A stretch of DNA of 64,000 bases. Source: Escherichia phage phiWec179. The notes under the pieces were generated by a model that worked only from the letters and a program-made list of their open reading frames with translations, searched no databases and was not told the origin of the DNA. Shown here piece after piece: positions 3,535 to 21,936 of the stretch (positions are counted from its first letter, which is position 1; each line of letters begins with the position of its first letter). The stretch is from the sequence record LC739533.1; one strand, given 5' to 3'. A program made the position numbers and the translations under genes.

Positions 3535-4152
3535 ATGAAGATAGTTTGTGATTGGGATCTGGTGGTTGCTCCACTGGATGTTGCTTGGCTGGAATGGTTG
3601 GTTAAAGTTAGTGGAGATTGTGTAGGCTTCTCCGAAGCTGTCAAGAATGTTGACTACGATCTTACTAAATACTTCCCAGGTTTCCGTGAGAAGTTTAACA
3701 TCGATCCTTACGGCTTTCTGGATAATCCCCATCTCTATGACACGATGGGATGTATCAAACCTATGGCTGACTTCTTAGAAGGTATTGTGAAAGAGGGCGA
3801 TAATGCACTTATTGCAAGTGTGACTAAAGGTGGACACCTTAGCTCAAAACACAAACATGTTTTAAGAACTTTGCCAACCATTGATTTTGGTAAAGGTTCT
3901 GGTAACGGTTTCTTTGCCACAAAAGAAAAATACCTGTTGCCTTGTGATATTGCCATAGATGATAGGGCAGAAAACCTGTTGTATTTTCCAGATCATGTTG
4001 TTAAGATTTATTACAATACGATGTATAAAGATTTGTATTTGGAAGAATTAAAAAAGAAACCAAACGTAGTTGTCACGGGTTTGTACAATCAAGCAGAAAC
4101 CTGTTGGCAGGTTTATTCAATGTTAAAAGAACGAGGAGAAATTAATGTCTAA
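3535..4152 (+). CDS. HAD-superfamily 5'(3')-deoxyribonucleotidase-like protein
   Basis: N-terminal CDWDLVV (DxDxV HAD motif I); RBS agaggagg; sits in nucleotide-metabolism cluster. Confidence 0.5.
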   Translation: MKIVCDWDLVVAPLDVAWLEWLVKVSGDCVGFSEAVKNVDYDLTKYFPGFREKFNIDPYGFLDNPHLYDTMGCIKPMADFLEGIVKEGDNALIASVTKGGHLSSKHKHVLRTLPTIDFGKGSGNGFFATKEKYLLPCDIAIDDRAENLLYFPDHVVKIYYNTMYKDLYLEELKKKPNVVVTGLYNQAETCWQVYSMLKERGEINV

Positions 4153-5134
4153 TATCAGTGCACAAGTCATCGCCCAATCCATCAACGAAGAAGGACAGAT
4201 GATCACAACTTTCGAACTGGAATATCCACGCATCATCCATTCGGAACTGATGACACACCGCCTATTCTCCCGAAACGCTGCTTCAAGCCGCGCTATTCCC
4301 GTCAAGACTTTGATTGAGATGGTTCGCAACGAACCTGCGGCACCTGTTCGATTTGGTCAACACCAACCTGGGATGCAGGATCAAGGTGTAGAGTATGATG
4401 CTCTCATTGGGGTAGGTTATTCGAGTCGTGAGTGGTGGAATTTAGCTGCACTTAGTGCGGCAAACTTTGCAGAACAAATGGCGGAAGCTGGTTACGCGAA
4501 GCAGGTTTGTAATCGCCTTCTTGAACCATTCCAAAAAATGAAGACGGTTCTGACAGCAACCGAATATGAAAACTTCTGGTGGCTACGTGATGATGCTGAT
4601 GCTGATCCGACTATTGAAGCTTTAGCCAAAATTATGTTTGAAGCCTATGAAGCTTCTACTCCAGAACTACTGGCTCCAGGTCAATGGCATACGCCTTACG
4701 TAGATCATGTCTACGAGAACATTGGTTTGGAAGGTGATGATGTTTGGGTATTCAGTGGGTATAGCACTACAGATGAAAATGGCAATACTATCATGCTGTC
4801 GCTGGAAGAAGCACTTGCAATCTCTTCTTCTTGTTGCGCACAAGTGAGCTATCGTCGTCTGAATGCAACTAAAGATAAAGCTTTGGACATTTATGGACGT
4901 TTGCTTACCGGACGTAAAGTTCACGCTTCCCCTTTTGAACATCAGGCAACCCCAATGAAAAAAATGGATTTGTCAGGCTTAAAACGACAGGAGCATGGTG
5001 TTAATATTCCTCCGTTCCCGATTTCTTGGGAACCAGGCGTTACTCATGTAGATCGTAATGGTCAATTCTGGTCGGGGAATATGAAGGGTTGGGTACAACA
5101 TCGTCAACTTTTAGACAATCATACTAAATGGTGA
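4145..5134 (+). CDS. ThyX-like (flavin-dependent thymidylate synthase family) protein
   Basis: ELMTHRLFSRNAASSRAIP resembles ThyX RHR-x7-S-x-R motif but with T in place of first R; 329 aa. Confidence 0.6.
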   Translation: MSNISAQVIAQSINEEGQMITTFELEYPRIIHSELMTHRLFSRNAASSRAIPVKTLIEMVRNEPAAPVRFGQHQPGMQDQGVEYDALIGVGYSSREWWNLAALSAANFAEQMAEAGYAKQVCNRLLEPFQKMKTVLTATEYENFWWLRDDADADPTIEALAKIMFEAYEASTPELLAPGQWHTPYVDHVYENIGLEGDDVWVFSGYSTTDENGNTIMLSLEEALAISSSCCAQVSYRRLNATKDKALDIYGRLLTGRKVHASPFEHQATPMKKMDLSGLKRQEHGVNIPPFPISWEPGVTHVDRNGQFWSGNMKGWVQHRQLLDNHTKW

Positions 5135-8158: not shown

Positions 8159-8180
8159 AGGGGCTTCGGCCCCTTTTTTA
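8159..8180 (+). terminator. rho-independent terminator (GGGGC-TTCG-GCCCC + T6)
   Basis: Same hairpin as at 1563, immediately after nrdA stop. Confidence 0.55.
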
Positions 8181-8193: not shown

Positions 8194-8532
8194 ATGAGCA
8201 CACTTATAGTTTTACCTGGAGTAACCCCAATCTACCGACCTGGGTTTAAGCCTCTGTTGCTTTGCCCTGAAGATTTCACCCCTACTTGGTGTCACCATTA
8301 TCTTGGTGGACGTGAAATAGCTAACATGCAGATTTGGGAATCTTTTTATCCAGAAGCCACGGCTTACGCAATAACAAGAGCAAGAAGTGAAGAAACAGTG
8401 ACTGTTATACTTGGTAGAAGCGTATGGGAAGCATTAGAAGGTTTCTACCGGAGTAATGGTTTTGAGGAACAAGATATTTTAAACTTAAAAGGTTTTTGTG
8501 AAATAGTGGAGGATTTAAATGGCAGCAATTAA
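8194..8532 (+). CDS. hypothetical protein
   Basis: 112-aa ORF between nrdA and nrdB. Confidence 0.5.
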   Translation: MSTLIVLPGVTPIYRPGFKPLLLCPEDFTPTWCHHYLGGREIANMQIWESFYPEATAYAITRARSEETVTVILGRSVWEALEGFYRSNGFEEQDILNLKGFCEIVEDLNGSN

Positions 8533-9604
8533 TTTACATAATGAGACTTACAAAACAGGTAAATATCCGGTATTCATGGGTGAGCAATTGGGGATCTTTG
8601 ACTCAATTAATGTGACGTATCCTGAAATGCACCGTCTGTATAAACTTCAGAAAGCCCAAGATTGGGATGAGAATGAAGTGGATCTTAGTCAGACCCGTAA
8701 AGACTTTGTAGCGTGTTCAAAAAACAACTACGATGTTATGATCAAGAACTTGTCGTTCCAGTGGGAGAATGATTCTCTGGCAAAATCCATCATCACTTTG
8801 TTCTCTCCGTTTTTGAGCAACAATGAAGCATGTGCTATGATGATGAAGCAGAGTGAGATGGAAGTGCTTCACGCTCTAACTTACTCGGAGATTGTTCGCC
8901 AGTGTACTCCAAACCCTGTAGAAGTTATTGATCAGATTATGGAGAACGACAAGATCTTCAACCGTATGGGTATCATTGCAGAGATCATGGGAGAGTTGGA
9001 AGAAGCAGGTCACAAATATGCACTTGGTCTGATTGAAGCTGATGATAAACTACGTTTGCTGGTCATGAAAGGTCTGGTAGCCCTGATTGGTCTGGAAGGT
9101 ATCCAGTTTATCTCTTCTTTCTCGGCAACGTTCGCCTTGGCAGAACAGCAACTGTTTGTAGGTGCTTGTAAGCTGATTCAGAAAATCATGTTGGATGAAA
9201 TCCTGCATGTTAAAATGGACTATGCTGTCATTGATGCTCTGATGCAAGATCCTGTGTGGAAGAAGATCTACGAAGATAACATCGAAGAACTTACAACTAT
9301 TCTGGATACAGTTATCGCTCAAGAAGAGCAGTGGTGTGATTATCTGTTTAGCGAAGGACGTTTTATCGTTGGGCTGAATGCTGAACTGTCCCGTCAATGG
9401 GTGTACTTCAATGCGGCTCCAATTTATCGTCGTTTGAAGATGAAGCACAGCTTTAAATCTCCTAAACAGAACCCACTACCTTGGATGGACATTTGGTTAA
9501 ACCCAGATCAGATTCAAGCAGCGGCGCAAGAGATCCAAGTTACAGCTTACAAACTGAACTCGGCTAACAAAGATGTTTCTGATGATATGGAGTTTGACTT
9601 CTAA
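8519..9604 (+). CDS. nrdB: ribonucleoside-diphosphate reductase small subunit
   Basis: 361 aa with diiron-carboxylate NrdB-like blocks (EVLHALTYSEIVRQ), C-terminal acidic tail; RBS gtggagga. Confidence 0.9.
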   Translation: MAAINLHNETYKTGKYPVFMGEQLGIFDSINVTYPEMHRLYKLQKAQDWDENEVDLSQTRKDFVACSKNNYDVMIKNLSFQWENDSLAKSIITLFSPFLSNNEACAMMMKQSEMEVLHALTYSEIVRQCTPNPVEVIDQIMENDKIFNRMGIIAEIMGELEEAGHKYALGLIEADDKLRLLVMKGLVALIGLEGIQFISSFSATFALAEQQLFVGACKLIQKIMLDEILHVKMDYAVIDALMQDPVWKKIYEDNIEELTTILDTVIAQEEQWCDYLFSEGRFIVGLNAELSRQWVYFNAAPIYRRLKMKHSFKSPKQNPLPWMDIWLNPDQIQAAAQEIQVTAYKLNSANKDVSDDMEFDF

Positions 9605-9822
9605 TGAAACTTAAATGTGTAGGATTGATCGACACATTCAAAGACGTATTTGACAAAGGGGCTTCCTATGAAGCCTCGGAGTTAAAGAACGGTTTTTGTG
9701 ATGTGCATGGTAAACGTCTTAAGAAAAACGGAGAACCTTGGCTTGGTGTTATGTCTTGTGGTCATATTGTGGTTAACGGTGTTGCAAAGTTTGAAATCGT
9801 AAAGGAGGAAGATAATGAGTGA
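9604..9822 (+). CDS. hypothetical protein
   Basis: 72-aa ORF with ATGA overlap to nrdB stop. Confidence 0.5.
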   Translation: MKLKCVGLIDTFKDVFDKGASYEASELKNGFCDVHGKRLKKNGEPWLGVMSCGHIVVNGVAKFEIVKEEDNE

Positions 9823-9958
9823 GTTTAGTTTTTGCCCTATTTGTGGTGGTACAGGTAATGCCTTAATTAGTGCGGAGCAGTACAGCCCGTGTTGGCATTG
9901 TTCTGGTAGTGGTTTGGTAGTTGAAGAAAACAAAGAGGAGGAAAAAGATGGGGATTGA
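9815..9958 (+). CDS. small zinc-ribbon protein (47 aa)
   Basis: Not in track (<60 aa); MSEFSFCPICGG..CWHCSG with two CxxC pairs; strong RBS aaaggagg 7 nt upstream. Confidence 0.4.
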   Translation: MSEFSFCPICGGTGNALISAEQYSPCWHCSGSGLVVEENKEEEKDGD

Positions 9959-10274
9959 TATCGAATGGAAGATGGTGCAAGGCGCACCATATAAGAAATG
10001 GGAAGAAGTGTTTAAAGGCGATCCGCAGATTGAGGATCAATTCGATGGGGATTTCAACTGGTTTCTTTACGAAGGTATTGGGTTAGTGAGTGTCTCCCCG
10101 TGGTTTGATGCAGATCCTGAAGATTGTGTCTTTGGTATTGAACTTGCGTCAGGATGCAGCGCACGGGCAATAGATCTCACAAGCTTGGATAAAAAAGCAA
10201 ACGAGATCTATTTTGAACTGCTTAATAAGTATAATATTGAGACTGAAACGTTAGTATCACAAAACGTTTGGTAA
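9948..10274 (+). CDS. hypothetical protein
   Basis: Start at ATG 9948 with RBS gaggagg. Confidence 0.5.
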   Translation: MGIDIEWKMVQGAPYKKWEEVFKGDPQIEDQFDGDFNWFLYEGIGLVSVSPWFDADPEDCVFGIELASGCSARAIDLTSLDKKANEIYFELLNKYNIETETLVSQNVW

Positions 10275-10283
10275 GGAGAACTA

Positions 10284-11276
10284 ATGCGCTATCTGGTAAC
10301 AGGTGGTCTTGGTTTTATTGGGAGCGCCGTTGTGCGCTCTCTTTGTCAAGATCCTAATAACGAAGTTTTTGTCATTGATAAAATGGGCTACGCAGCCGAT
10401 ATTGAAAATGTAGGGGATATCACTCACGCCAAACTAAGCATGACGGATTTGGCAAACGAAGCACAGGTCAAAAGTTTGGTGGTAGAATGCAACCCTGATT
10501 TCATTATTCACTTAGCGGCAGAGAGTCATGTGGACAACTCTATCAAAAATCCACGAGCTTTCATCGACTCCAATATCATCGGTACATATAATTTACTGGA
10601 AGCTGCGAGACTACTCCCAAGGAATAAGCTGAAGATGTTTGTACACGTCTCCACAGACGAAGTGTACGGCGATATGGCAGACTCTGGCGCTCCCTTTACC
10701 GAAGAGACAGCATATACTCCTTCAAGCCCGTACAGCGCGTCCAAGGCGGCTTCTGATCATCTTGTGAAAGCTTGGCACCGTACTTATGACTTGCCTGTAG
10801 TGATAACTAATTGCTCCAATAATTTTGGACCTTACCAATACCCTGAAAAATTGATTCCAAAAGTAATCACAAGCATCTTGACGAACAAAGAAATCCCAGT
10901 GTATGGTAAAGGTGATCAGGTACGAGACTGGCTTTTTGTTGAGGACCATGCACGAGCTATTCTTCAGGTAGCTTCTGGCGGCGAACCTGGACAAACTTAC
11001 AACGTAGGTACACGTAATCCTAAAACCAATATGGAGATCATCTATATGATTTGTGATTACATGGATGCCGTACACCCGCAAAGTGGAACCTACCCCTCTT
11101 CAAGTTTAATAACTTTTGTTGAAGATCGTAAAGGACATGACTTGCATTATGAAATCAACCCTGCTAAGATTGAATCTGAACTGGGTTGGAGTGCAAACTC
11201 CACATTTGAACAAGACCTTTACTCTACGATAGAGTGGTATTTAAACAACCCTCAATGGTGGAGAGAAAAGATTTAA
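10284..11276 (+). CDS. rfbB: dTDP-glucose 4,6-dehydratase
   Basis: TGGLGFIGS Rossmann motif, YSASK catalytic YxxxK, about 330 aa SDR-extended. Confidence 0.9.
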
Positions 11277-11284
11277 GGAGGGTT

Positions 11285-12163
11285 ATGAAAGGTATTATTT
11301 TGGCTGGAGGAAGTGGAACCCGCCTACATCCAGTAACACGCAGTGTGAGCAAGCAATTGCTCCCTGTGTATGACAAACCTATGATTTATTATCCTTTATC
11401 AGTCTTGATGTTGGCAGATATTAAGGATATCTTAATCATCACAACCCCAGGCGATCAGGAAGATTTTGAGTATCTTCTTGGAGATGGATCTATGTTTGGG
11501 ATAAAGATCACTTACGCAATGCAGTCTGAACCACGAGGTCTTGCAGATGCTTTCATCATTGGTAAAGATTTCATTGGGGAAGATTCTGTTGCCCTTATTT
11601 TAGGGGATAACTTGTTCTTCGGACAAAGTTTCGGAAAACTTCTTATCCAAGCCAGCGAAATGGTGGATGTTTGGGGTGGAGCTTGTATCTTCGGGTATCT
11701 GGTGAAAGATCCTGAACGATTCGGTGTTGTTGAGTTTGGAAGTAATCGCCAAGCTATCTCTATTGAAGAGAAACCGGAACATCCTAAATCAGACTATGCT
11801 GTCACGGGTTTGTATTTCTATGACAACTCTGTTGTTCAACGTGCATTGGAAGTAACCCCTTCCGAGCGTGGAGAACTGGAGATCACAGATATCAATCGCA
11901 GCTACCTCGAAGACAGGAAGTTACAAGTTGAAGTTCTTGGAAGAGGATTCACTTGGTTGGATACAGGGACACACGCCAGTCTAATGGAAGCAGGTCAATT
12001 CGTGCAGACTATTGAGAACTGCCAAGGATTGAAGATTGCGTGCCTGGAAGAGATCGCTTTCAAAAAAGGGTGGATTTCTTTAGAGACTTTGGTGTATCAT
12101 GGCAACTCATTGAAGAAAACAGAGTACGGGCAATATTTGTTAAAATTAGCGGAGGGTAAATGA
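11285..12163 (+). CDS. rfbA: glucose-1-phosphate thymidylyltransferase
   Basis: [37 protein letters not shown]-terminus typical of RmlA; start at ATG 11285. Confidence 0.9.
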
Positions 12164-12720
12164 AAATAAAAGAATTAAGTATTCCTGGTCTGGTTGTCTT
12201 TAAACCTCAAGTTTACAAAGATGATCGTGGTTACTTCACGGAGACGTTTAACGAGAAGATTTACGAAGAGGTTATTGGCAAACAAACGTTTGTTCAGGAT
12301 AACCATTCATTCTCTACTTTAGGTGTTCTTCGCGGAATGCACTTTCAAGTAAACAATCCGCAAGGTAAGCTTGTACGTTGCACACGAGGTGAAGTTTTTG
12401 ACGTGGCTGTAGATCTTCGTGAAGGTAGTCCAACCTTCGGACAATGGGAAGGTGTGATTCTTAGTGGGCGTAACAATAAACAGTTTTGGATTCCACCTGG
12501 CTTTGCACATGGTTTTGTTGTAACCTCTTATGAAGCCAACTTTGAATACAAGTGCACCAACTACTACGATCCGGCATCTGAACGTAGTTTGTTGTGGAAC
12601 GATCCTACTGTGAATATTGATTGGGGTTTTGATATGATTTTCAATGATGAGAATTTTGTACCTATCATTTCGGAAAAGGATGCACAAGCTAAAACACTGA
12701 AGGAGCTTATGGAATCATGA
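12160..12720 (+). CDS. rfbC: dTDP-4-dehydrorhamnose 3,5-epimerase
   Basis: 186 aa; [18 protein letters not shown] cupin block typical of RmlC. Confidence 0.85.
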
Positions 12721-13559
12721 AAACATATTTAGTATTGGGTGGTAATGGTCAATTAGGTCAGGCACTGCGTAAAGTGGTGCCGGAGAATGTGACTTTGGTG
12801 TATCCAGAAAAGCGTGTAGATATCACCAGTTTCGAAGCTGTAAGAAAAGCGATCATGGACACCCCAAATATTAACGGTGTTATCAACTGTGCGGCATACA
12901 CTGCGGTGGACAAAGCAGAGACAGATGTTGATGCAGCTATGGCTGTAAATTTACACGGGGCAGCTAATATTGCTGCCTTCTGTAAGGCTTGGGATATTGA
13001 CATGGTGCATATTTCTACTGACTATGTGTTCAACAGCGATAAACCGTTGTTCCATCAGGATGAACCCAACCCTATCAATGTTTACGGGTTATCTAAAAGT
13101 TTGGGTGAAGCTGCTGTTCGTGGTATCTACCATAAAGCTTTTATTATCCGCACGGCTTCTGTGTATAGCGAGTTTGGTAACAACTTCCTGAAGACTATGG
13201 TGTCTCGTTACAACGATGGTCAAAGAGACTTCTCGGTAGTTGCAGATCAAACATCTCGACCAACTTATGCCCCAGATTTGGCTAAGATGATTTTCCAAGT
13301 GTTGGAAACAGGATATAACACCCGTACTTTGCATTACGCTGGGAACATCACTGTTTCGTGGCACCAGTTCGCAAAAATGATATTGACACGTATGCCTGAA
13401 TCTGTTATTATACACCCGACCTCTGCTGCAACCTATAATTCGGCAGCGATGCGACCAGCAAAGTCTATACTAATTACGTCTGGTTGGAACGAACCTTCAA
13501 GCGTCGGACAAGGTATTGAAGAATCTTTAGCAGTATTACTTAATAAGGAGAGAGCATGA
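12717..13559 (+). CDS. rfbD: dTDP-4-dehydrorhamnose reductase
   Basis: LVLGGNGQLGQAL Rossmann motif, about 280 aa, directly after rfbC. Confidence 0.85.
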   Translation: MKTYLVLGGNGQLGQALRKVVPENVTLVYPEKRVDITSFEAVRKAIMDTPNINGVINCAAYTAVDKAETDVDAAMAVNLHGAANIAAFCKAWDIDMVHISTDYVFNSDKPLFHQDEPNPINVYGLSKSLGEAAVRGIYHKAFIIRTASVYSEFGNNFLKTMVSRYNDGQRDFSVVADQTSRPTYAPDLAKMIFQVLETGYNTRTLHYAGNITVSWHQFAKMILTRMPESVIIHPTSAATYNSAAMRPAKSILITSGWNEPSSVGQGIEESLAVLLNKERA

Positions 13560-13816
13560 ATTTTGTAATTTACGGCAAACCAAATTGCCAGTTCTGTGAA
13601 ATGTCCAAACAACTCTTAACTATGCGTGAAAAAGAGTTTGAATATCTGACATTAGATCAGGACTATGATTTTGAAGTGATGACTCAAGCAGTGATCGCAG
13701 CAACAGGAATTGCACCTCGCACCTTCCCGCAGATTTTTGTGGAAGAGCTTGGAGCAGTAACCCACGTAGGCGGTTTTACCGAACTGCGTGATTTCATGGC
13801 TCAAATTGCGGAGTAA
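13556..13816 (+). CDS. glutaredoxin/NrdH-like redoxin
   Basis: 86 aa, N-terminal CQFC redox motif in thioredoxin-fold context. Confidence 0.65.
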   Translation: MNFVIYGKPNCQFCEMSKQLLTMREKEFEYLTLDQDYDFEVMTQAVIAATGIAPRTFPQIFVEELGAVTHVGGFTELRDFMAQIAE

Positions 13817-13821
13817 TATAA

Positions 13822-13971
13822 ATGAAAAGTAAACAGAAACGTAAGATCTTTTCTCGTGCTTTAGCAAACGAGCTTAAGTCCAACACAAAGAAGACGAAAC
13901 CGAAACGTGAGACTTCTCCTGAACATTTACTGTTTGACGAACTGGATCACGGAGTAGAGGACGACGAATAA
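13822..13971 (+). CDS. small basic protein (49 aa)
   Basis: Not in track; MKSKQKRKIFSR..; weak RBS. Confidence 0.3.
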   Translation: MKSKQKRKIFSRALANELKSNTKKTKPKRETSPEHLLFDELDHGVEDDE

Positions 13972-13979
13972 AGGAAAAC

Positions 13980-14483
13980 ATGGCTAAAAAAGTAGTAGAT
14001 GAGTTTGACATGTTGGCTGTTGATGAAGGACTGAAGCTGACTGTTTACCCAGACACCTTGGGATATTGGACAGTCGGCATTGGACACCTCTTAACTAAAA
14101 AGAAAGATAAGGCGGAAGCTATTCGTATTCTGGATGCTCTTGTTGGTCGCAAGACTAACGGAGTTATCACAGAGAAAGAAGCCCGTGCTATCTTTGCTGA
14201 CGATGTTGAAAAGGCGAAAAAACAGATTAAAAACAGTTCCATTCTTGCCCCAATTTATGATAAGGTGAGTGAAACCCGTAAACTGGCAATCATCAATATG
14301 GTGTTCCAGTTGGGGTTAACAGGAACGGAAGGCTTTAAAAATAGCTTGACTTTAATCAGTAATTCGTACTATACTCAAGCTGGTAAAAACATGAGAGCCA
14401 GTAAATGGTACTCTCAAACGCCAAACCGTGCAGAACGAGTAATCAAGGTTCTAACATCTGGGACTCTTGATTCTTACAACTAA
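13980..14483 (+). CDS. T4-type lysozyme (GH24 endolysin)
   Basis: DEGLKLTVYPDTLGYWTVGIGHLL..LINMVFQLG..SKWYSQTPNRAERVI closely parallels T4 lysozyme e. Confidence 0.9.
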   Translation: MAKKVVDEFDMLAVDEGLKLTVYPDTLGYWTVGIGHLLTKKKDKAEAIRILDALVGRKTNGVITEKEARAIFADDVEKAKKQIKNSSILAPIYDKVSETRKLAIINMVFQLGLTGTEGFKNSLTLISNSYYTQAGKNMRASKWYSQTPNRAERVIKVLTSGTLDSYN

Positions 14484-14520
14484 CAAAGGGGCGCAAGCCC
14501 CTTCTATAAGGAGTGCTACT

Positions 14521-15276
14521 ATGGGAAAAACAGCTACCGCTAAATCACCGCGCCAGAAGTTAGCTTCTAATGCGAAAGTAGAAAGTCGTTATGCTGCAAA
14601 AGCAGTTGGAAATGATGACTATCGTTTAGATGGGTTTTCACCAGAAGGAGATCAGCAGCAAATCGTTCAAAGTATGATCTGGAATGATCTTACAGTCGTA
14701 AATGCTCCAGCAGGGACAGGCAAGACTTCCGTGACTTTATGGAAAGCTTTGCAGATGCTTCGAGCAGGAGATTTCCGTAAGCTTCTTTTTATTAAAAACC
14801 CGACTGAAGTTGGTGATGATCAGATTGGTTTCCTTTCAGGAGATAAAACTGATAAACTGGCGGCGCACTACGAATCAACCAAACGAATCTTCCAGCAGTT
14901 TATGACTGCAAACAAATTAGAGAATGATATTGGTTCCGGTAAGATTGAACTTAATATCCCGAACTACCTACTGGGTGCTACCCTGGACAACACTATTGTG
15001 ATCATTGATGAAGCACAGCTTATGTCTCCAGAAACATTAAAACTTCTGGTAGAGCGTGCAGGGATCAACACTCATGTTGTTGTTCTTGGAGATGTTCGTC
15101 AAACCTACGCTATCAAGAAGCGTGCAAACGGTTTGAAAGATCTTCTTGACAAAGTTGCCCCTGAAGGTGAAGATGGTGTTCGTGTCCCTCTGGTAGACTT
15201 TATCGGTTATGTGCAGTTAACCACAGATGACAACAAACGATCTCGTTTGTCTAAGTTCATCACGGAAATTTATTAA
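14521..15276 (+). CDS. phoH: PhoH-like ATPase
   Basis: Walker A APAGTGKTS, Walker B VIIDEAQ; start at ATG 14521 with RBS aaggag. Confidence 0.85.
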   Translation: MGKTATAKSPRQKLASNAKVESRYAAKAVGNDDYRLDGFSPEGDQQQIVQSMIWNDLTVVNAPAGTGKTSVTLWKALQMLRAGDFRKLLFIKNPTEVGDDQIGFLSGDKTDKLAAHYESTKRIFQQFMTANKLENDIGSGKIELNIPNYLLGATLDNTIVIIDEAQLMSPETLKLLVERAGINTHVVVLGDVRQTYAIKKRANGLKDLLDKVAPEGEDGVRVPLVDFIGYVQLTTDDNKRSRLSKFITEIY

Positions 15277-15315
15277 TAACAAAAAAGCAAGGATGCTTTA
15301 TTAAAGGGAGGGTCG

Positions 15316-15813
15316 ATGGTACAGACAATTATAGATCGGACTGGTATTGATGAATGTTACCAAACTGGGCTTGTGAAGCCTAACGAGTTCCGACAGATTT
15401 GCGTGAATCATATTGAGAAAGAAATTGCACTAACTTTGGAGAACCTTACTCTCCGAGACAAGCTGTCAATGTTTGTGGCTTGGTGTAAAGGTGAAGATTG
15501 GTTATTGGCCCATTTTCAAGAACTTTCTGATAGTCAAGAAGGCTTATATGAATGTATAATAGGAATAGCTGGCTCCAATCCTGAACTTCTCCATTTGGAA
15601 GAAGAAGAGGCGAAGTTATTGTTCTTAAGCAACATGTTCAATCGTAAAGCATTGCTTGTTCGTGAGTGTAGTGATCTTTTAAATCATCCACTGGCGATCA
15701 CAAACGAAATACTGGTTGACAAAGAGACATTACGTGCGATAGACTATCTGCGCAAGTATGTCAACGGCGGGAAAGCAGTTCTTAAAACATTAACAGAGGA
15801 GGAAGCAGAATGA
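15316..15813 (+). CDS. hypothetical protein
   Basis: 165-aa ORF, RBS aagggagg. Confidence 0.55.
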   Translation: MVQTIIDRTGIDECYQTGLVKPNEFRQICVNHIEKEIALTLENLTLRDKLSMFVAWCKGEDWLLAHFQELSDSQEGLYECIIGIAGSNPELLHLEEEEAKLLFLSNMFNRKALLVRECSDLLNHPLAITNEILVDKETLRAIDYLRKYVNGGKAVLKTLTEEEAE

Positions 15814-16499
15814 CTACAATTATCGCAACCAAAAACAAGATCCTTAGCGACGGTAAAGTAACTTTCGGTGGTCGTGTAGATTCAACCAATTTCAAGAAAG
15901 TACGTAAGATTGGGGATTATCTCGTAGGTGGCGCAGGGCGTTTGACTTCGGTATTAGCTTTCTTCCAGTGGTTCGAACAGAACCTGCAATGTGAAGCGGC
16001 GCGTGAGGCAGTGCCTGGGTTGATGATCAGTTCTAACCCTGATCGTGAAGATGAAGAGTTTATTGCTCTCGTTGTTCACCCAGACGGACGTATTTTCCTG
16101 CATGAAGGTAATGATCCTACTCGTGCATACCCAATCGACGAAGAATACTACGCAGTAGGTAGTGGTTCCGATTTCGCGCTCGCAGCACTGGACGGCGGTG
16201 CTTCTCCAGAAGCTGCTATGGAGGTTGCCAAGAAGCGTGACGCATACTCCGGTGGCGAAACCTTCGTTGAAGAATTAGATGAGATCATTGAACTGACTGA
16301 CGAAGATCTCGAAAACTTCACCAAACAAGAACTGATCAACCTGCTCAAGTTTGGTGATCCTTCTGGTGAAGAAACTCCTCGTGACGTGGCAGGTGACGAG
16401 ACGGTAGAAGAAGAGGTTGCTGTAGAAAAAGACTTGACTTCTAAACCGGAAAATATTAATCTCGTAAACGTAGCGGATTTCGACAATCCCGCTGCTTAA
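15810..16499 (+). CDS. HslV/proteasome-like Ntn peptidase with acidic C-terminal tail
   Basis: MTTIIA (Thr nucleophile after Met), FKKVRKI, VGGAGR, AVGSGSDFALAAL parallel E. coli HslV blocks; extra about 60-aa acidic tail. Confidence 0.6.
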   Translation: MTTIIATKNKILSDGKVTFGGRVDSTNFKKVRKIGDYLVGGAGRLTSVLAFFQWFEQNLQCEAAREAVPGLMISSNPDREDEEFIALVVHPDGRIFLHEGNDPTRAYPIDEEYYAVGSGSDFALAALDGGASPEAAMEVAKKRDAYSGGETFVEELDEIIELTDEDLENFTKQELINLLKFGDPSGEETPRDVAGDETVEEEVAVEKDLTSKPENINLVNVADFDNPAA

Positions 16500-16504
16500 T
16501 AAAA

Positions 16505-16527
16505 CTGCCCCTTCGGGGGCATTTCTT
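16505..16527 (+). terminator. rho-independent terminator (GCCCC-TTCG-GGGGC)
   Basis: Hairpin plus T-rich tract after HslV-like gene. Confidence 0.5.
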
Positions 16528-16544
16528 ACACAGAGGAGATTATT

Positions 16545-16982
16545 ATGTTGAACGTTCCTGTTAAATTCGTCGATAGCTGTGTTAATGCTTACCAACAAAC
16601 TTGTAAACGTGCCTCAAACTGTTTGCAGTCTTTGATTCAAACGCGGTACGTGATCCAAAAGAAAAGAAAGTGGTTTGGTAAGGATTCTTATAGTGTTAAT
16701 GCGTTTGGGGAGTATCAACTCCAATATGACGATAACATGCAGCACATCTTAGAGTTTTTACTGATAAAAGATAAAATCTCCCCTGCGGATTACCAGTTAC
16801 TTAAATTCTACGATCAGAGTTTGTCTATTGAGGAAGTTATTGAAGATATCCTTTCTCGTAAGACAGATAAGAACACTATTGGTATTACAAACTTAGAGAT
16901 GCAATTGCTTAATGAGATCTTTTTGTTTGTGGAAGATGAGTCTGTAACTAAGGAGGAGCTTTTAAATGGCTTTAAGCTATGA
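16545..16982 (+). CDS. hypothetical protein
   Basis: 145-aa ORF, RBS gaggag. Confidence 0.55.
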   Translation: MLNVPVKFVDSCVNAYQQTCKRASNCLQSLIQTRYVIQKKRKWFGKDSYSVNAFGEYQLQYDDNMQHILEFLLIKDKISPADYQLLKFYDQSLSIEEVIEDILSRKTDKNTIGITNLEMQLLNEIFLFVEDESVTKEELLNGFKL

Positions 16983-17475
16983 TCGTCCAGAGTCCGATTA
17001 CTATCCGACTCCGCAAAAAGCGATTAACTCGTTATTTAGCATTATTGATTTTAAAAATTTGAAAGAGGAAGGATTTACATTTGCAGAACCGTGTAAAGGA
17101 CAAGCAGCGGCTATTTACCGTCACTTCCCTGAAGGTTCTCAGTATTGTGAGCTTGAAGAAGGTAAAGATTATTTTAGTCACGTATGGGAAAATCGTCCCG
17201 ACATTATAATCACTAACCCCCCGTTCAAGCTGGCATTAGAGTTCTTGGAAAAGAGCTTGAAAGAAGCAGACGTATCAGTCTACCTGCTTCGCTTGGGATT
17301 CCTTGAGTCAAAGAAACGTCGAGCGTTTCATCAAGAAAACCCACCTACGAATTTGATTGTACTCTCCGAACGTCCTTCGTTCGTAGCGGGTGGAACAGAT
17401 AAGACAGCGTATGCTTGGTACGTATACGATCCAAAACAAATTTTGGGTCTAACTCAACCATTTTATTTCGTTTAA
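16966..17475 (+). CDS. DNA N6-adenine methyltransferase (small phage Dam-like)
   Basis: DYYPTP and ITNPPF motifs. Confidence 0.75.
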   Translation: MALSYDRPESDYYPTPQKAINSLFSIIDFKNLKEEGFTFAEPCKGQAAAIYRHFPEGSQYCELEEGKDYFSHVWENRPDIIITNPPFKLALEFLEKSLKEADVSVYLLRLGFLESKKRRAFHQENPPTNLIVLSERPSFVAGGTDKTAYAWYVYDPKQILGLTQPFYFV

Positions 17476-17485
17476 GGAGCACACT

Positions 17486-17722
17486 ATGGCTAAATTTATT
17501 ATGACCGTTTCTATTGATTTTGATGATGAGGACGGAGGCATTAACTTAGGTATTGCTCAGAACCTGGAAGGGGATTTGAACCCGACAGAAGCAGCTATGG
17601 CGGTATTCTTTAAAGATGCCATAACAGCCACAGCAACGCATTCTGCAAATCAAACTGTAGATTACGGTAGCATGGTTCAAGCCTTGGTTGATGCTCAAAA
17701 CGGTGAAGATTGGGATGATTAA
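17486..17722 (+). CDS. hypothetical acidic protein
   Basis: 78-aa ORF, RBS aaggag. Confidence 0.5.
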   Translation: MAKFIMTVSIDFDDEDGGINLGIAQNLEGDLNPTEAAMAVFFKDAITATATHSANQTVDYGSMVQALVDAQNGEDWDD

Positions 17723-17925
17723 TGGCTTACAATTATTATTGCGTTTACGCAAATGAAGCAAAGAAAGGCGACACTGGCACTAATGTCTATGCAGAATCAG
17801 AAATACATGCAAAAGAAATTGGTGCGATCCTTCTGTCACGTTGGACAGGTGGTAACTATTCTGCTGCGGATTTGTTCGCAGAAATGGATGACACCATCCA
17901 AGAAGATACCATCACCACAACCTGA
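17722..17925 (+). CDS. hypothetical protein
   Basis: 67-aa ORF, ATGA-coupled to previous. Confidence 0.5.
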   Translation: MAYNYYCVYANEAKKGDTGTNVYAESEIHAKEIGAILLSRWTGGNYSAADLFAEMDDTIQEDTITTT

Positions 17926-17946
17926 TATTGCTTGAAGTAGTTGGTA

Positions 17947-17977
17947 CTCTCCTTGTTTCGGCAAGGAGGGTATTTTT
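17947..17977 (+). terminator. putative rho-independent terminator
   Basis: CTCTCCTTG/CAAGGAGGG stem (one mismatch) + TATTTTT. Confidence 0.4.
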
Positions 17978-17989
17978 AAGGAGGAAATT

Positions 17990-18181
17990 ATGCAGGAGAA
18001 TGAAGAGATAGTTGTTAAAAAGTTCCCGACACGTACACAGGCAGTCAACTTTGCCTCTGATTTGCTTTTGGATGTGGAAGGAGTTCTCATTAGACATGAA
18101 GGGGATTCCTGGAATGTCTCTTATAATGTAAACAGATCAATTATATATTTAGGAGAAGAGAACTTCTCTCGTATAGAGTGA
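17990..18181 (+). CDS. hypothetical protein
   Basis: 63-aa ORF, RBS aaggagg. Confidence 0.5.
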   Translation: MQENEEIVVKKFPTRTQAVNFASDLLLDVEGVLIRHEGDSWNVSYNVNRSIIYLGEENFSRIE

Positions 18182-18195
18182 TCGAAGGAGCAATT

Positions 18196-18768
18196 ATGCG
18201 TTCTACTTACACAGGTAAGATTAATTCTGGTATCATTTTAGCAGCAGCAGGAATCATCAGCAAAACTTTCAAAGTGGCAAACCTACCAGAGTGTGTAGAT
18301 TTTGACCACGTATTCAATCCATTAAATCCTTCTCGTTGTGTTGTTCGTAGCAACGTTGAGAATCCAAATGAGAACTTGTTTTATGTAACATCACCTTCAC
18401 AAAGTATTCTAAACCAAGTGGAGGCTAAAATTATTACCGAAGGTAGTTATTTCTCATTGCTACCTTGTAAATCGGTGGAGATTGAAGATAGTATCACCTT
18501 CGCAAATAACTTGGTCTTGACCATGTTCATGGTTTCTGATAAAGACTGTGGAGACGATATGGTTTTAGCTGTAAGGAATGTTTATGACACATTGGGTATT
18601 GCTTATAGCTGTAAGTTGTGCGATGATTATAAATCTTGTTCAGACTTTTACATAAATGGTGTTCGGGTATGCCGTGTTGAATCCTACTGGGTGCAAGACA
18701 CATACATAACAGTAGCGAACGTGATCAATGAACCTATGTTCAGCCACGCTTTAGCGTTAATCATTTGA
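18196..18768 (+). CDS. hypothetical cysteine-rich protein
   Basis: Start at ATG 18196 with RBS gaaggag. Confidence 0.55.
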   Translation: MRSTYTGKINSGIILAAAGIISKTFKVANLPECVDFDHVFNPLNPSRCVVRSNVENPNENLFYVTSPSQSILNQVEAKIITEGSYFSLLPCKSVEIEDSITFANNLVLTMFMVSDKDCGDDMVLAVRNVYDTLGIAYSCKLCDDYKSCSDFYINGVRVCRVESYWVQDTYITVANVINEPMFSHALALII

Positions 18769-18778
18769 GGAGGAAGGA

Positions 18779-19108
18779 ATGGAAATTACTACAGAACAGG
18801 CTCTTATCGACGAAGGGCGTAAAATCTTAGAGAAGCATTTGGGAGATATACATCAAACCCCTGGCTACTTAGGGTGGCGCATGGTTGAAGCTGTAGATTT
18901 CCTTCCTCGTACAAAACAAGACGTTGAAATGCGTTCTCTGTTCTTGCTTGTCAAAGTAGACGGGGATACGCCTTTCAAACTCGCAGCTTCACACATTGAG
19001 AAGGTGGAGGAGAAAGCTTATTCAGAGTTTGCCGAACTCGTATTACAGGAGGATCTCGAAGGGAAGGTAAACATTTTTATTTTTCTGGATTTTGAGGAGG
19101 AGATATGA
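18779..19108 (+). CDS. hypothetical protein
   Basis: 109-aa ORF, RBS gaggagg. Confidence 0.55.
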   Translation: MEITTEQALIDEGRKILEKHLGDIHQTPGYLGWRMVEAVDFLPRTKQDVEMRSLFLLVKVDGDTPFKLAASHIEKVEEKAYSEFAELVLQEDLEGKVNIFIFLDFEEEI

Positions 19109-19842
19109 TTTTATATAAAGAGATTACCGTGGAGCAGGATCAAGACCTCTTCATCATCGGGGACTTACATGGTTGCTACGATCTTTACTTGAAAGGTAAG
19201 AATTATCTTGGTATCCGAGATACAGATGTGGTTGTGTCTCTCGGAGATTTGACAGATCGCGGTAAACAAAACTTCAAATGTGTTGTGGAATTTACACGCA
19301 AAGAGAATCGTTATGCGCTTTGTGGTAATCACGAAGATATGATGATTAAAGGCTTACTGGAAGGGGATCGTCGTTACTACGAATGTTGGTATCAGAACGG
19401 TGGTCATACAGTGTTGGCAGAATGTGATGAAGAAGGCTCTACATTACTTGCTACGATGGTCGAGGACAACCCTGTGGTTTTGGTTGTGAATTACCGAGGT
19501 ATGAAGTTAGGGTTTATTCATGGCGGATATCCTTCCTCTTTTGAATATATTCCGCTGACAGACATACCGCACCTACGTATGAACAAAGCAAGAGAGGCTA
19601 CTTTTGCTGAAGCTTTGATGTGGGATCGTGACATGGTGGAGTGTGCTAAAGAAGGTATGAAACTTCCGGTTGTTATGGGTGTTGATTATGTGTTTCACGG
19701 GCACTCTTATGTGAAAGAACCTTTGATCAATGCTAATCGTGTTTATATGGACACTGGGTCTGTTTTCAATAACAACTTAACGTTTGCCTATTTTGATGCA
19801 GACGGTGGACTTCAGTTTTATTCAACTTTACAGGAGGATTAA
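19105..19842 (+). CDS. Ser/Thr protein phosphatase (PPP-family metallophosphatase)
   Basis: GDLHG, GDLTDRG, GNHE signature motifs. Confidence 0.85.
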   Translation: MILYKEITVEQDQDLFIIGDLHGCYDLYLKGKNYLGIRDTDVVVSLGDLTDRGKQNFKCVVEFTRKENRYALCGNHEDMMIKGLLEGDRRYYECWYQNGGHTVLAECDEEGSTLLATMVEDNPVVLVVNYRGMKLGFIHGGYPSSFEYIPLTDIPHLRMNKAREATFAEALMWDRDMVECAKEGMKLPVVMGVDYVFHGHSYVKEPLINANRVYMDTGSVFNNNLTFAYFDADGGLQFYSTLQED

Positions 19843-20135
19843 TGTATAAAATTACAATCGTAGAATCTGTGGGTGAGATTCGTAAAGAAATTATTCTGGA
19901 GACGGAAGATCTGGAACTGGTACGTGAAATCATAATTGGTAAGAATGTAGACAAGGTGGAGTCGGACGCACCCAACCTGATGATCGATGACCAATATGCA
20001 GAATTTCGTCGTATTTTTGAGGAAGAAAGGAAGAAGTGGGGCAAAGAACCAAACGTTTTTCGTCCTTATAATCCGTATCCTTCTGGTGATCCGTGGATCA
20101 TGACTAACAGAAACCCGTTTGAAATAACCTGTTGA
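19842..20135 (+). CDS. hypothetical protein
   Basis: 97-aa ORF, ATGA-coupled. Confidence 0.55.
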   Translation: MYKITIVESVGEIRKEIILETEDLELVREIIIGKNVDKVESDAPNLMIDDQYAEFRRIFEEERKKWGKEPNVFRPYNPYPSGDPWIMTNRNPFEITC

Positions 20136-20722
20136 GGTGGCCTATGAGCAACCTATTTTACACAGGCGTGGGAAGTCGAGAGATAACCCACGAAGAATGG
20201 GATTTAATGGTCGCTGTAGCAAAGTGGTTGGCTAACTGTGGTTTTACTTTACGTTCAGGTAATGCAAACGGTAGTGACTCTGCTTTCGAAACAGGTGTGG
20301 AAGAATCCAAAAACAAATCTCTCAAGGAGATTTATATCCCTTGGGAGAAGTTTGAAGGCAATGATATTCCAGGTGAGAAAATAGTTCTTGCTAAACCTGA
20401 CAGTATGAACTATGCTATCAGTCTCCAGTGGATAAAGGATATTCATCCGGCATTTGATAAATTGAAACAAGGTGCACGTAAATTGCATCAACGTAACGTT
20501 CATCAGGTGTTGGGACAAGATCTGGAGCATCCAATTCCTTCTTTGTTTTTACTGGCTTGTTCCAAAGAAGATAAGAAGGGAGACGTTATGGGTGGAACAC
20601 GGACGGCGTGGCTCATCGCTAAAGCTAATAACGTTCCATGTTTTAACTTACGTGGTAAAACAAAGGAAGAACTTTATGCTTTTCTTAAACCGTTGGTCAA
20701 GGGGGCAATCAGTGGCAATTAA
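20132..20722 (+). CDS. DprA/Smf-like (SLOG-type) Rossmann-fold protein
   Basis: TGVGSREIT..FTLRSGNANGSDSAFETGV resembles DprA GSR / SGxAxGxD blocks. Confidence 0.5.
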   Translation: MRWPMSNLFYTGVGSREITHEEWDLMVAVAKWLANCGFTLRSGNANGSDSAFETGVEESKNKSLKEIYIPWEKFEGNDIPGEKIVLAKPDSMNYAISLQWIKDIHPAFDKLKQGARKLHQRNVHQVLGQDLEHPIPSLFLLACSKEDKKGDVMGGTRTAWLIAKANNVPCFNLRGKTKEELYAFLKPLVKGAISGN

Positions 20723-21236
20723 GTTAAATCGTGCAAACGTAGGTAATCGTTTTAACCTTAGCCGTATAAACGAGGACGTAGATGTTACAGCAGATATTGA
20801 AAAAATCATGCAGGGTATTGTCCATCACGGTTTGCGTTTTGCCAGGGATTTGGTAATCTTCCGTTATGACGGAGAAGATGATCGTTCAAAGAATGATGGG
20901 ATTATCTTCGTAGATAAAGATTTAACCCAAGCAGATATTGAACAGATCAACCGTTATTTTATTGGTGTAGGGGATCTTCAAGACACGCAGCTTGCACGTA
21001 TGGCAGAAATTCTGGCGAATAAATTGTTGCAAGATATCGGAAAAGTTCTTGACAAAAATCCAAAACATGTTATAGTGACTATCCACAAAATGAGTTTTAT
21101 TAAGTATCTTAACAAACCTGGTAAACTGGGTTATGGATGGATACGCACAAGTGGACCACAAACCACTCTCGAAACCGAGATGTGCTATACAATTGAAGAA
21201 GTAAAACGTGAGGAGGAAGAGAATGGCGGAATTTAA
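20712..21236 (+). CDS. hypothetical protein
   Basis: Start uncertain: GTG 20712 (RBS aaggggg) or ATG 20808; the track start 20472 overlaps the previous gene. Confidence 0.4.
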   Translation: MAIKLNRANVGNRFNLSRINEDVDVTADIEKIMQGIVHHGLRFARDLVIFRYDGEDDRSKNDGIIFVDKDLTQADIEQINRYFIGVGDLQDTQLARMAEILANKLLQDIGKVLDKNPKHVIVTIHKMSFIKYLNKPGKLGYGWIRTSGPQTTLETEMCYTIEEVKREEEENGGI

Positions 21237-21513
21237 TGAAGTGAAAAGTTACGAAAGCAATTTCGTAAGCAATTGGGAAGCATGGGATGAGATGGGTGTT
21301 GGTGAACTCTATTTCTACAATGTAACCCTTCGTCCAGAATATCAACATCTCATTCCAGAAGGCACTGTGCAGATCGGTATGTTCATGTCTTCTCAAGACG
21401 GTGTTGTGCAGTTTGAGTTTTACTCTGACACAGAACAGAACGAATTCACTTATCGTGCATTCAATATCGTATTAGCTTTAGGAGAGGAGAAATTTTATGA
21501 CGACGAAGTATAA
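21223..21513 (+). CDS. hypothetical protein
   Basis: Start at ATG 21223 with RBS gaggagg. Confidence 0.5.
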   Translation: MAEFNEVKSYESNFVSNWEAWDEMGVGELYFYNVTLRPEYQHLIPEGTVQIGMFMSSQDGVVQFEFYSDTEQNEFTYRAFNIVLALGEEKFYDDEV

Positions 21514-21694
21514 AACAGTAGCAGAAGCACTGAAAGCAGCACACGAAGCCATTGCAGAAGCTGAACAATTGGCTGATGAAACTGGCACAAGTTTTCACTT
21601 CTCTGTTGAATATGGGATGGGTGGTACTTATGACCCAGAAGATGAGAACGAATACACTGGGACCAACTGGCACCCATCTTCCCTCGGTTGTTAA
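21497..21694 (+). CDS. small protein, member of tandem paralog triplet
   Basis: C-terminal W-x-SS-x-C motif shared with the next two ORFs. Confidence 0.5.
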   Translation: MTTKYKTVAEALKAAHEAIAEAEQLADETGTSFHFSVEYGMGGTYDPEDENEYTGTNWHPSSLGC

Positions 21695-21708
21695 TAAGGA
21701 GAAATAAA

Positions 21709-21927
21709 ATGAGTGATCGTAATGCACAAGCATTAGCAGACAAAGCAAAAGAAATCATGAAGCTTGTGGATGCACTGGCAGCAGAAGCAGAAAAGGAAGG
21801 TTTCGGTCTTAGCTTAGAAAACAATACAATCTGTTTTGAAGATTGGCAGTCTTCTGCTTGCTATGGCGAAGCTGATGATGGTTTCACCGTTGACTCTGAC
21901 GGTGTTTGGTATAGCAGTAATTGTTAA
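21709..21927 (+). CDS. small protein, member of tandem paralog triplet
   Basis: Ends WYSSNC; RBS aaggag. Confidence 0.5.
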   Translation: MSDRNAQALADKAKEIMKLVDALAAEAEKEGFGLSLENNTICFEDWQSSACYGEADDGFTVDSDGVWYSSNC

Positions 21928-21936
21928 GGAGGGATC

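Follow-up and report, generated by a model that had tools for sequence, protein, structure and literature searches.

Phage-encoded dTDP-L-rhamnose genes in Escherichia phage phiWec179 and their possible link to a conserved block of phage glycosyltransferases

Four co-directional genes for the synthesis of dTDP-L-rhamnose, rmlB, rmlA, rmlC and rmlD, lie in a 64,000-nucleotide stretch of Escherichia phage phiWec179 (GenBank LC739533.1). This whole stretch is called the window below, and coordinates are window positions unless another record is named. The original prediction, made from the sequence alone, described the genes as a complete pathway, and this was borne out: at 10284-13559, RmlB, RmlA, RmlC and RmlD all score above their NCBIfam equivalog cut-offs. 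Gene identities were taken from mechanically called open reading frames (ORFs) searched against Pfam and NCBIfam, and the Pfam domains agree with the NCBIfam assignments. The four genes are as follows.

10284-11276, + strand: rmlB, dTDP-glucose 4,6-dehydratase, 330 amino acids (TIGR01181, 428.8 bits against a cut-off of 365)
11285-12163, + strand: rmlA, glucose-1-phosphate thymidylyltransferase, 292 amino acids (TIGR01207, 465 bits against a cut-off of 361)
12160-12720, + strand: rmlC, dTDP-4-dehydrorhamnose 3,5-epimerase, 186 amino acids (TIGR01221, 246 bits against a cut-off of 156)
12717-13559, + strand: rmlD, dTDP-4-dehydrorhamnose reductase, 280 amino acids (TIGR01214, 244 bits against a cut-off of 224)

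The start of rmlA was set at the ATG at 11285, which has a GGAGG Shine-Dalgarno sequence upstream and is also the start in the deposited record. A GTG at 11234, where the mechanical ORF begins, was dropped because the hidden Markov model match starts only at residue 19. The closest solved structures form a mosaic: Salmonella RmlB (1g1a, E = 6e-110), Aneurinibacillus RmlA (4ho0, E = 2.5e-123), Pseudomonas aeruginosa RmlC (2ixi, E = 6e-62) and Bacillus anthracis RmlD (3sc6, E = 1.4e-49), with Salmonella RmlD (1kbz) a far worse match (E = 1.4e-25). Alignment with these structures showed intact motifs in RmlB (GxxGxxG, TDE and YxxxK), RmlA (GGxGTRL, here GGSGTRL, LGDN, EKP and WLDTGT) and RmlD (GxxGxxG, STD and YxxxK), and the catalytic His, Lys, Tyr and Asp of RmlC are likewise intact. 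RmlD is the most divergent of the four, at 20 bits over the TIGR01214 cut-off. From these features, the pathway is very probably active, with dTDP-L-rhamnose as its product.

The window comes from a lytic myovirus of E. coli in the Stephanstirmvirinae subfamily. By megablast, positions 10000-14000 are 100% identical to Escherichia phage phiWec186 (LC739535.1, 154,550 bp), and the entire window matches that record at 99.6-100% identity except for a variable stretch at 48.4-54.3 kb. The window phage is therefore a near-identical sibling of phiWec186 and a different isolate; a window position equals the phiWec186 record position minus 85,450. At the rml locus, the phiWec186 record names rffG, glucose-1-phosphate thymidylyltransferase, rfbC and rfbD.

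The rml cluster is a previously annotated and published feature and is not new. Olsen et al. (2020) discuss it and propose rhamnosylation of hydroxymethylated nucleotides (PMC7552041). Maffei et al. (2021) discuss it in phi92-like phages (PMC8594841), and PaulScherrer (Bas60), a phage in that study, is among our RmlC tblastn matches. The paper describing 'Wecvirus' (PMC12695924) does not mention rhamnose, dTDP or glycosyl. We found the rml region in 126 phage records by megablast, the majority of which carry the four enzyme names, and RmlC in 169 phage records by tblastn. The cluster is kept in ~130 Stephanstirmvirinae genomes from at least three genus-level groups, with protein identity down to 65-68%. 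In the phAPEC8/phi92-like phages (Phapecoctavirus, Justusliebigvirus) it is orthologous and syntenic and differs in nothing substantive, with 82-83% nucleotide identity to the phAPEC8-type cluster and ~68% protein identity to the phi92-type RmlC; dozens of GenBank records annotate it there as a dTDP-rhamnose pathway. Unlike these relatives, the window phage sits in the phiWec ('Wecvirus') branch. What is new here is the identification of four phage glycosyltransferases as likely users of dTDP-L-rhamnose, and of DNA as an unlikely target.

Some records of these phages also carry unexpected host names. OR584014.1, MG065650.1, MG065639.1 and OP562383.1 are 82-94% identical to these coliphages and were deposited as Pseudomonas, Campylobacter and Acinetobacter phages, labels that probably reflect host mis-assignment or contaminating coliphages.

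The surroundings of the cluster bear on how it came to lie where it does. The description of the genes as embedded among phage nucleotide-metabolism genes is accurate, since the array holds NrdAB, glutaredoxin and a ThyX-like gene. The relevant features are listed here.

3535-4152, + strand: NT5C-type 5'-deoxynucleotidase-like gene, its end overlapping the start of the ThyX-like gene
4145-5134, + strand: ThyX-like gene (Pfam Thy1, E = 9e-9; PHROG 85), upstream of the terminator
8159-8174, + strand: intrinsic terminator hairpin 3' of nrdA (AGGGGCTTCGGCCCCT GC stem, then a T-run)
8519-9604, + strand: nrdB, class Ia ribonucleotide reductase beta subunit (Pfam, NCBIfam)
9604-9822, 9815-9958 and 9948-10274, + strand: three small ORFs of 72, 47 and 108 amino acids (deposited coding sequences)
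13556-13816, + strand: grx, glutaredoxin/thioredoxin-fold protein, 86 amino acids (Pfam Glutaredoxin, E = 1.3e-10; PHROG 22)
14485-14504, no strand assigned: GC-rich hairpin after a lysozyme-like gene, a possible 3' boundary of the unit (its + strand T-run is weak)

The rml genes are closely packed and have Shine-Dalgarno sites. They had been called contiguous and translationally coupled, which fits the 4-bp ATGA overlaps at rmlA/rmlC and rmlC/rmlD but not the rmlB-rmlA junction, where the genes are 8 bp apart. A further 4-bp ATGA overlap joins rmlD to grx, so the placement of the cluster immediately before a glutaredoxin-like gene stands, but it does not directly follow nrdA and nrdB, as the three small ORFs separate nrdB from rmlB. 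These ORFs gave no Pfam or NCBIfam match and belong to PHROGs of unknown function. In the relatives phiWec188, phiWec190 and PsgM04F, an extra ORF of 66 amino acids (a ~194-bp insertion, at 20285-20482 in OR584014.1) lies between the 108-residue ORF (orf108) and rmlB; the window lacks it.

The likely transcription unit comprises orf112, nrdB, the three small ORFs, rmlBACD, grx, orf49 and the lysozyme gene, and the terminator at 8159-8174 is its probable 5' boundary. The ThyX-like gene had been assigned to the same operon. It is on the same strand, but a shared transcript is unsupported, and because the strong terminator at 8159-8174 follows nrdA the gene cannot be assigned to the rml transcript. 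A promoter scan of the sequence returned 25 sites against 27.2 ± 5.6 in shuffled sequence, and with no excess it was not used.

Comparison with related phages suggests how this arrangement arose. In Vequintavirus HeinrichReichert and Mydovirus BIS47 the order is thymidylate synthase, two small genes, nrdA, nrdB, glutaredoxin, (endolysin) and PhoH, and the block contains no rml genes. In Stephanstirmvirinae, rmlBACD and the small ORFs are placed exactly between nrdB and the glutaredoxin gene; the three small ORFs are missing from the nrdB-grx junction of Vequintavirinae. On this synteny, the rml cluster is an insertion into the nrdB-grx block, with nrdB as its ancestral left neighbour; grx is the ancestral right neighbour of nrdB and probably a ribonucleotide reductase reductant that stands outside the sugar pathway. 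The nucleotide-metabolism setting thus reflects the insertion site and gives no evidence that rhamnose serves DNA synthesis.

We compared the cluster with host rfb genes. A search of 5,426 complete E. coli genomes gave at best ~64-65% nucleotide identity to the rml region, across 36-39% of the query, and the matches with this identity were rfbB-D-A-C loci. The bacterial rmlBDAC/rfbBDAC operon of the E. coli and Salmonella O-antigen loci has the same four enzyme families, catalytic residues and co-directional clustering as the phage. It differs in gene order (B-D-A-C in the host, B-A-C-D in the phage) and in sequence, with ~64% identity to E. coli over a third of the region. The phage cluster also sits in the nrdB-grx module, and the O-antigen glycosyltransferases, wzx and wzy of the bacterial operon are not adjacent. 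Unlike the E. coli and Salmonella operon type, the phage RmlD is nearer to Bacteroidota and Bacillus types: in a scan of bacteria and archaea with one genome for each of 185,579 species, seeded by exact peptide patterns and not exhaustive, it reached at most 43% identity, and the best 80 matches were all from Bacteroidota. GC content is ~0.42 throughout the window, the rml region included. Because the GC content is phage-like, E. coli identity is at most 65%, the gene order differs, RmlD identity is at most 43% and 126-169 phage records carry the genes, sequence comparison indicates that the cluster is not a recent host capture and has long been resident in phages.

A natural deletion is informative about which parts of the pathway are retained. 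The genes for the thymidylyltransferase and the dehydratase are reportedly missing from Phapecoctavirus ESCO37 (PMC10269720). Its record shows a precise loss of rmlB and rmlA, with orf108, rmlC, rmlD and grx intact and all three small ORFs retained. Enterobacterales all produce dTDP-4-keto-6-deoxyglucose via RffH and RffG for enterobacterial common antigen (ECA), and many E. coli lack RmlC and RmlD. Every E. coli genome that we searched gave a match, which is consistent with universal RffH/RffG. The steps lost in ESCO37 are therefore replaceable by host RffH/RffG, and RmlC and RmlD are not, a pattern that is in keeping with selection for the end product and speaks against the rml genes acting as a mere sink for dTTP.

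A sugar donor implies an enzyme that uses it. The original prediction recognised no glycosyltransferase in the window, and a Pfam scan of the window coding sequences likewise found none among the matches listed. A search of the whole genome, for which 100 phiWec186 coding sequences were scanned against Pfam in three bundles with matches listed down to E = 1e-3, was positive: three weak glycosyltransferase matches appeared in the early region, and PHROGs resolve them as four adjacent genes.

phiWec186 record 24479-27619, outside the window: block of four genes assigned to PHROG 'glycosyltransferase'
within the block: one gene of 187 amino acids (phrog_14179)
within the block: one gene of 227 amino acids, GT-A (phrog_2456)
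within the block: two paralogous genes of 314-315 amino acids, GT4-like GT-B (phrog_7162), 39% identical to each other

Most GenBank records label these genes 'hypothetical', and RefSeq re-annotations give 'glycosyltransferase (x4)'. None of the four proteins has a transmembrane or hydrophobic segment (maximum KD19 1.42), and the genome contains no further paralogs of them. The block lies ~70 kb from the rml cluster, between a set of Ter and phosphoribosyltransferase (PRTase) genes and the genes for an HNH endonuclease, a primase-helicase and PolA. The phage lineage that carries the rml genes has the block in 133 records. By tblastn, Vequintavirus lacks it: just ~8 non-mycobacterial matches fall below 60% identity.

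Just upstream of the block, at ~13000-23200 of the phiWec186 record, are PRTase ComF-like, TerC, TelA, vWA-TerF-like and TerD genes; this Ter gene region of a lytic phage also has HAD hydrolase, macro-domain and PRA-PH-like matches.

By sequence, the GT-A and GT-B proteins gave only noise against the PDB, and their folds were then predicted. The 227-residue family has invariant FDDD (DxD-type) and GYGxED motifs, and its predicted structure (pLDDT 87.7) adopts a minimal GT-A fold with STIV A197, vaccinia H3, TarP, LH3 and COLGALT1 as top PDB matches. The 314-residue model (pLDDT 94.3) is a GT4-like GT-B fold with GlgM, GtfC, Gtf3, BshA, MshA, PglA and SdgB as top matches.

Relatives of these genes occur well beyond the Stephanstirmvirinae. 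In a 135.6-kb contig with a 46%-identical GT-A, a gp0 homologue (46%) is followed in turn by a 356-residue protein of the NDP-hexose 4,6-dehydratase family, the GT-A, a GT-B (40%), a primase-helicase and PolA; the best model for the 356-residue protein is TIGR01181, at 171 bits and under the cut-off. One IMG/VR locus has the same dehydratase-containing arrangement, so the block appears to be coupled to 6-deoxyhexose chemistry in two more distant lineages. Scanning IMG/VR with the GT-A alignment yielded 346 relatives. Of the 80 loci retained, ~65 have a homologue of the 315-residue GT-B, down to ~26% identity, within 1-2 kb of the GT-A.

We took a Pfam census of the neighbours in 20 non-redundant lineages; the family scans in alignment mode cover the best 25 of 30, 29, 37 and 79 families, and one covers single matches at E <= 2.5e-30. 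Among the families listed were GT2 (8 members), Glyco_trans_1_4 (5 + 5), Glyco_transf_7C (5 + 4), GT11, Glyco_tranf_2_5, FkbM methyltransferases (6), a hexapeptide transferase, and terminase and portal genes. TET/JBP and ThyA were not among the families listed (in the second list, the best 25 of 79). The GT-A/GT-B pair often starts a run of genes of 190-290 codons that includes FkbM methyltransferases, GT2, GT7C, GT11 and hexapeptide transferase. This make-up of glycosyltransferases and methyltransferases points to a glycan-building cassette rather than a one-sugar base modification, and the pair looks like a widespread, uncharacterised phage glycosylation cassette found in many unrelated lineages. 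Terminase and portal genes near the module were rejected as evidence of a structural role, as such proximity may arise by chance in small genomes.

We consider the best overall explanation to be a long-resident rml copy that feeds the four soluble glycosyltransferases in making a rhamnose glycan, with a protein acceptor favoured, and assign it a probability of roughly 45%. An ancestor of the Stephanstirmvirinae would have acquired the rml genes as an insertion between nrdB and grx, and their co-expression with early or middle nucleotide-metabolism genes would follow from position and not from biochemical necessity. RmlA, RmlB, RmlC and RmlD would turn glucose-1-phosphate and dTTP into dTDP-L-rhamnose, securing a supply of activated 6-deoxyhexose that is independent of the host O-serotype. 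The four glycosyltransferases would consume this donor and assemble a rhamnose-containing oligosaccharide in the cytoplasm, and the acceptor would be a protein, more precisely one of the virion, by analogy with the mycobacteriophages and giant viruses that are glycosylated. That the pathway feeds the block is somewhat more probable than the whole of this scheme. That the acceptor is a virion or other protein is a tentative proposal, less likely than not. Slightly less likely still is that the virion proteins of Stephanstirmvirinae bear a coat of rhamnose-containing oligosaccharide made wholly by phage RmlABCD and the block. The original prediction had offered host surface polysaccharide, phage DNA or virion components as destinations of the sugar; the evidence favours protein (virion), then the envelope and then another soluble acceptor, and weakens the case for DNA.

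Several lines of evidence are consistent with a protein acceptor. Outside its own lineage, the GT-A has ~500 tblastn matches to mycobacteriophage glycosyltransferases. Its profile aligns with the N-terminal domain of MilleniumForce gp102, a 478-residue cluster F mycobacteriophage glycosyltransferase at the position of Che8 gp108, with an hhalign probability of 99.1% (E = 1.3e-18, 194 columns) and a shared F[IL]FDDDCYP motif. Two papers (PMC12363180, PMC11256854, both citing Freeman 2023) state that mycobacteriophages of clusters F, O and C use glycosyltransferases of their own to glycosylate proteins of the capsid and tail tube. The mycobacteriophage virion glycosylation loci (Che8 gp108-110, Corndog gp38, Myrna) likewise encode soluble glycosyltransferases in a non-structural region; unlike in this phage, no sugar-nucleotide pathway is present in the regions viewed. 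The GT-B fold matches also include GtfC, Gtf3 and SdgB, enzymes that glycosylate Ser-rich proteins. As here, the giant viruses (chloroviruses, mimiviruses) are described as combining virus-encoded nucleotide-sugar synthesis, including rhamnose, with cytoplasmic glycosyltransferases (PMC9614988, PMC7019647). Against BFVD, the GT-A model matched megavirus, pithovirus and tupanvirus GT2/GT25 proteins (TM-score 0.5-0.6, ~15% identity), a likeness to giant-virus machinery at the fold level only, and those viruses infect eukaryotes. Giant viruses use UDP-L-rhamnose chemistry, not the bacterial dTDP route.

Other observations weigh against this explanation. The homology to cluster F reaches only the uncharacterised MilleniumForce gp102 and not the experimentally implicated Che8 gp108-110, to which the GT-A family shows no detectable relationship (hhalign probability <2% for each of gp108, gp109 and gp110), so that the connection to virion glycosylation is indirect. 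The GT-B fold matches are generic and also include enzymes acting on small molecules and lipids (MshA, BshA, PimA, WaaG). No obvious Ser/Thr-rich extensions were seen in 32 phiWec186 structural proteins, and we found no report in the searched literature of glycosylated coliphage virions or of a virion glycan in any member of the Stephanstirmvirinae. A distance of 70 kb separates the rml cluster from the block, and their co-occurrence is mostly a single lineage-level event and statistically weak. A sugar-nucleotide gene is missing from the 10 kb around most GT-A/GT-B loci. In principle, the product of the divergent RmlD could also be dTDP-6-deoxy-L-talose instead of L-rhamnose.

The sugar might instead be destined for the host envelope. 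With dTDP-rhamnose as donor, the phage glycosyltransferases would then alter or cap undecaprenyl-linked intermediates of the lipopolysaccharide (LPS) core/O-antigen, ECA or NGR, or RmlC and RmlD would drain the ECA precursor dTDP-4-keto-6-deoxyglucose. Such remodelling would mask the phage's own glycan receptors, giving superinfection exclusion and less loss of progeny on debris, or would sequester undecaprenyl phosphate (Und-P) and weaken the envelope. ECA, NGR and LPS core glycans do serve these phages as receptors (PMC8594841, PMC11990801), and rhamnose is a typical O-antigen sugar. The GT-B fold matches include cell-envelope enzymes of the WaaG, PglA, PimA and TarM/TarP types, a distant homologue is named by its source 'glycosyltransferase involved in cell wall biosynthesis', and the retention of rmlC and rmlD in ESCO37 fits precursor drainage as well. 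However, the Pfam scans of 100 coding sequences found no Gtr family of an O-antigen-glucosylating seroconversion cassette (the membrane proteins GtrA, a flippase, GtrB, an Und-P glycosyltransferase, and GtrC, a periplasmic transferase), nor any other flippase, polymerase or ligase; the glycosyltransferases themselves have no transmembrane segment. The phage is also strictly lytic with a short cycle, which leaves little time for surface turnover, and the GT-A/GT-B module is shared by phages whose hosts are very dissimilar, among them actinobacteriophage relatives with unrelated host envelopes, which argues for a phage-intrinsic acceptor. We regard envelope remodelling as improbable.

A second alternative, which we judge to be rather improbable, is that a small molecule or a host protein is rhamnosylated to take over or protect the cell, so that the pathway would be an auxiliary metabolic module with no connection to the virion. 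The adjacent Ter-associated genes (PRTase, TerD, TelA, TerC) might supply a nucleoside-like acceptor, as the block lies ~2 kb downstream of this gene set, and the GT4-like fold matches include the small-molecule enzymes MshA, BshA, GlgM and TreT. Bacteria also have dTDP-rhamnose-dependent protein rhamnosylation, by EarP on EF-P (PMC5615199). This argument rests purely on gene context, however; the GT-A/GT-B module is widespread without Ter genes, and the phage enzymes do not specifically resemble EarP or natural-product rhamnosyltransferases.

DNA hypermodification, in which dTDP-rhamnose would be the donor for glycosylating a modified base (5-hydroxymethyl-dU or -dC) and so evading nucleases, as with glucosylated 5-hydroxymethylcytosine in T4, has already been proposed in print for this cluster (PMC7552041). 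The rml genes lie among nucleotide-metabolism genes and the block lies beside replication genes, which recalls T-even DNA glucosylation (gp42 with alpha- and beta-glucosyltransferases) and TET-TAGT cassettes, where a lytic phage pairs a sugar donor with glycosyltransferases near DNA metabolism genes. The GT-A has a faint match to TAGT (PF20691; E = 2e-3, 18.5 bits, below the 27.5 cut-off) and a match to PHROG 842 (beta-glucosyl-HMC-alpha-glucosyltransferase; E = 3e-7) over residues 18-80 only, around the DxD motif. The ThyX-like protein, whose gene start is overlapped by the NT5C-like 5'-deoxynucleotidase gene, is very divergent, with the motif THRxxSxxxxSSR in place of RHR..., and phmmer matched it to no solved ThyX in the PDB at E <= 0.01. 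The same ThyX-like gene is nevertheless shared with Vequintavirinae that have neither rml genes nor the glycosyltransferases, and the insertion into the older nrdB-grx block accounts for the nucleotide-metabolism location.

Further evidence weakens the DNA option. In contrast to the T-even and TET-TAGT systems, the ~100 coding sequences scanned against Pfam down to E = 1e-3 yielded neither a ThyA-family hydroxymethylase nor TET/JBP nor any other base-modifying enzyme, the donor would be a dTDP-6-deoxyhexose and not UDP-glucose, and fold searches found no structure like the T4 alpha- or beta-glucosyltransferase. Relatives of the phi92 type in which the cluster is present are described as 'exceptionally susceptible' to six restriction-modification systems of types I-III (PMC8594841), and the searched literature contained no report of rhamnosylated phage DNA. 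Four glycosyltransferases, accompanied elsewhere by FkbM methyltransferases and GT11, also suggest a complex glycan over a base decoration of one or two sugars. DNA thus seems a very unlikely destination.

The idea that the genes are a neutral passenger, recently captured from a host rfb locus and without a selected role in the phage, gains something from the viability of ESCO37 without rmlA and rmlB, which makes at least half of the cluster dispensable in the laboratory, but it is already refuted by the host comparisons above (identity, gene order, RmlD divergence and GC ameliorated to the phage level) and by intact frames and catalytic residues conserved across ~130 genomes.

The remainder of the window contains several other features. 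Genes lie on the + strand up to ~27 kb and on the - strand beyond. Downstream of the cluster, on the + strand, are genes for a PhoH-like ATPase (14521-15276), an HslV/proteasome-like peptidase subunit (15810-16499) and a DUF7277-DUF7275 protein (22306-23244, E = 1.3e-67). The PHROG-style label 'DNA methyltransferase' that the relative PsgM04F carries for two genes (window 16966-17475 and 24232-24915, + strand) was set aside as probably unreliable, with no Pfam match at E <= 0.01. A Sir2/CobB-like NAD-dependent deacylase is encoded at 26118-26918 (+ strand), another window coding sequence specifies a NADAR-domain protein (E = 1.2e-33), and a macro domain occurs elsewhere in the genome; together these are a possible ADP-ribose/NAD-related takeover or anti-defence set. 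The sole divergence from phiWec186, at 48419-54330, consists of mismatches, small indels and one block at 75% identity. It overlaps 1.5 kb without an annotated coding sequence in the phiWec186 record (window ~47513-49057) and resembles a hypervariable early-gene region.

These phages are widely used in therapy cocktails and in the BASEL collection. On the use that a strictly lytic coliphage makes of dTDP-rhamnose, the leads provided here are the connection of the rml genes with a conserved block of four glycosyltransferases, and the placement of that block within a widespread GT-A/GT-B phage module. If the sugar is attached to the host envelope or to DNA, it would bear on superinfection exclusion or defence evasion. 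If it is attached to virions, it would influence how stable therapeutic phages are, how they behave pharmacokinetically and how the immune system recognises them, effects already demonstrated with mycobacteriophages. Virion glycosylation would then be described for the first time in phages that infect Gram-negative bacteria, and phage self-glycosylation, so far known from actinobacteriophages, would be widespread.

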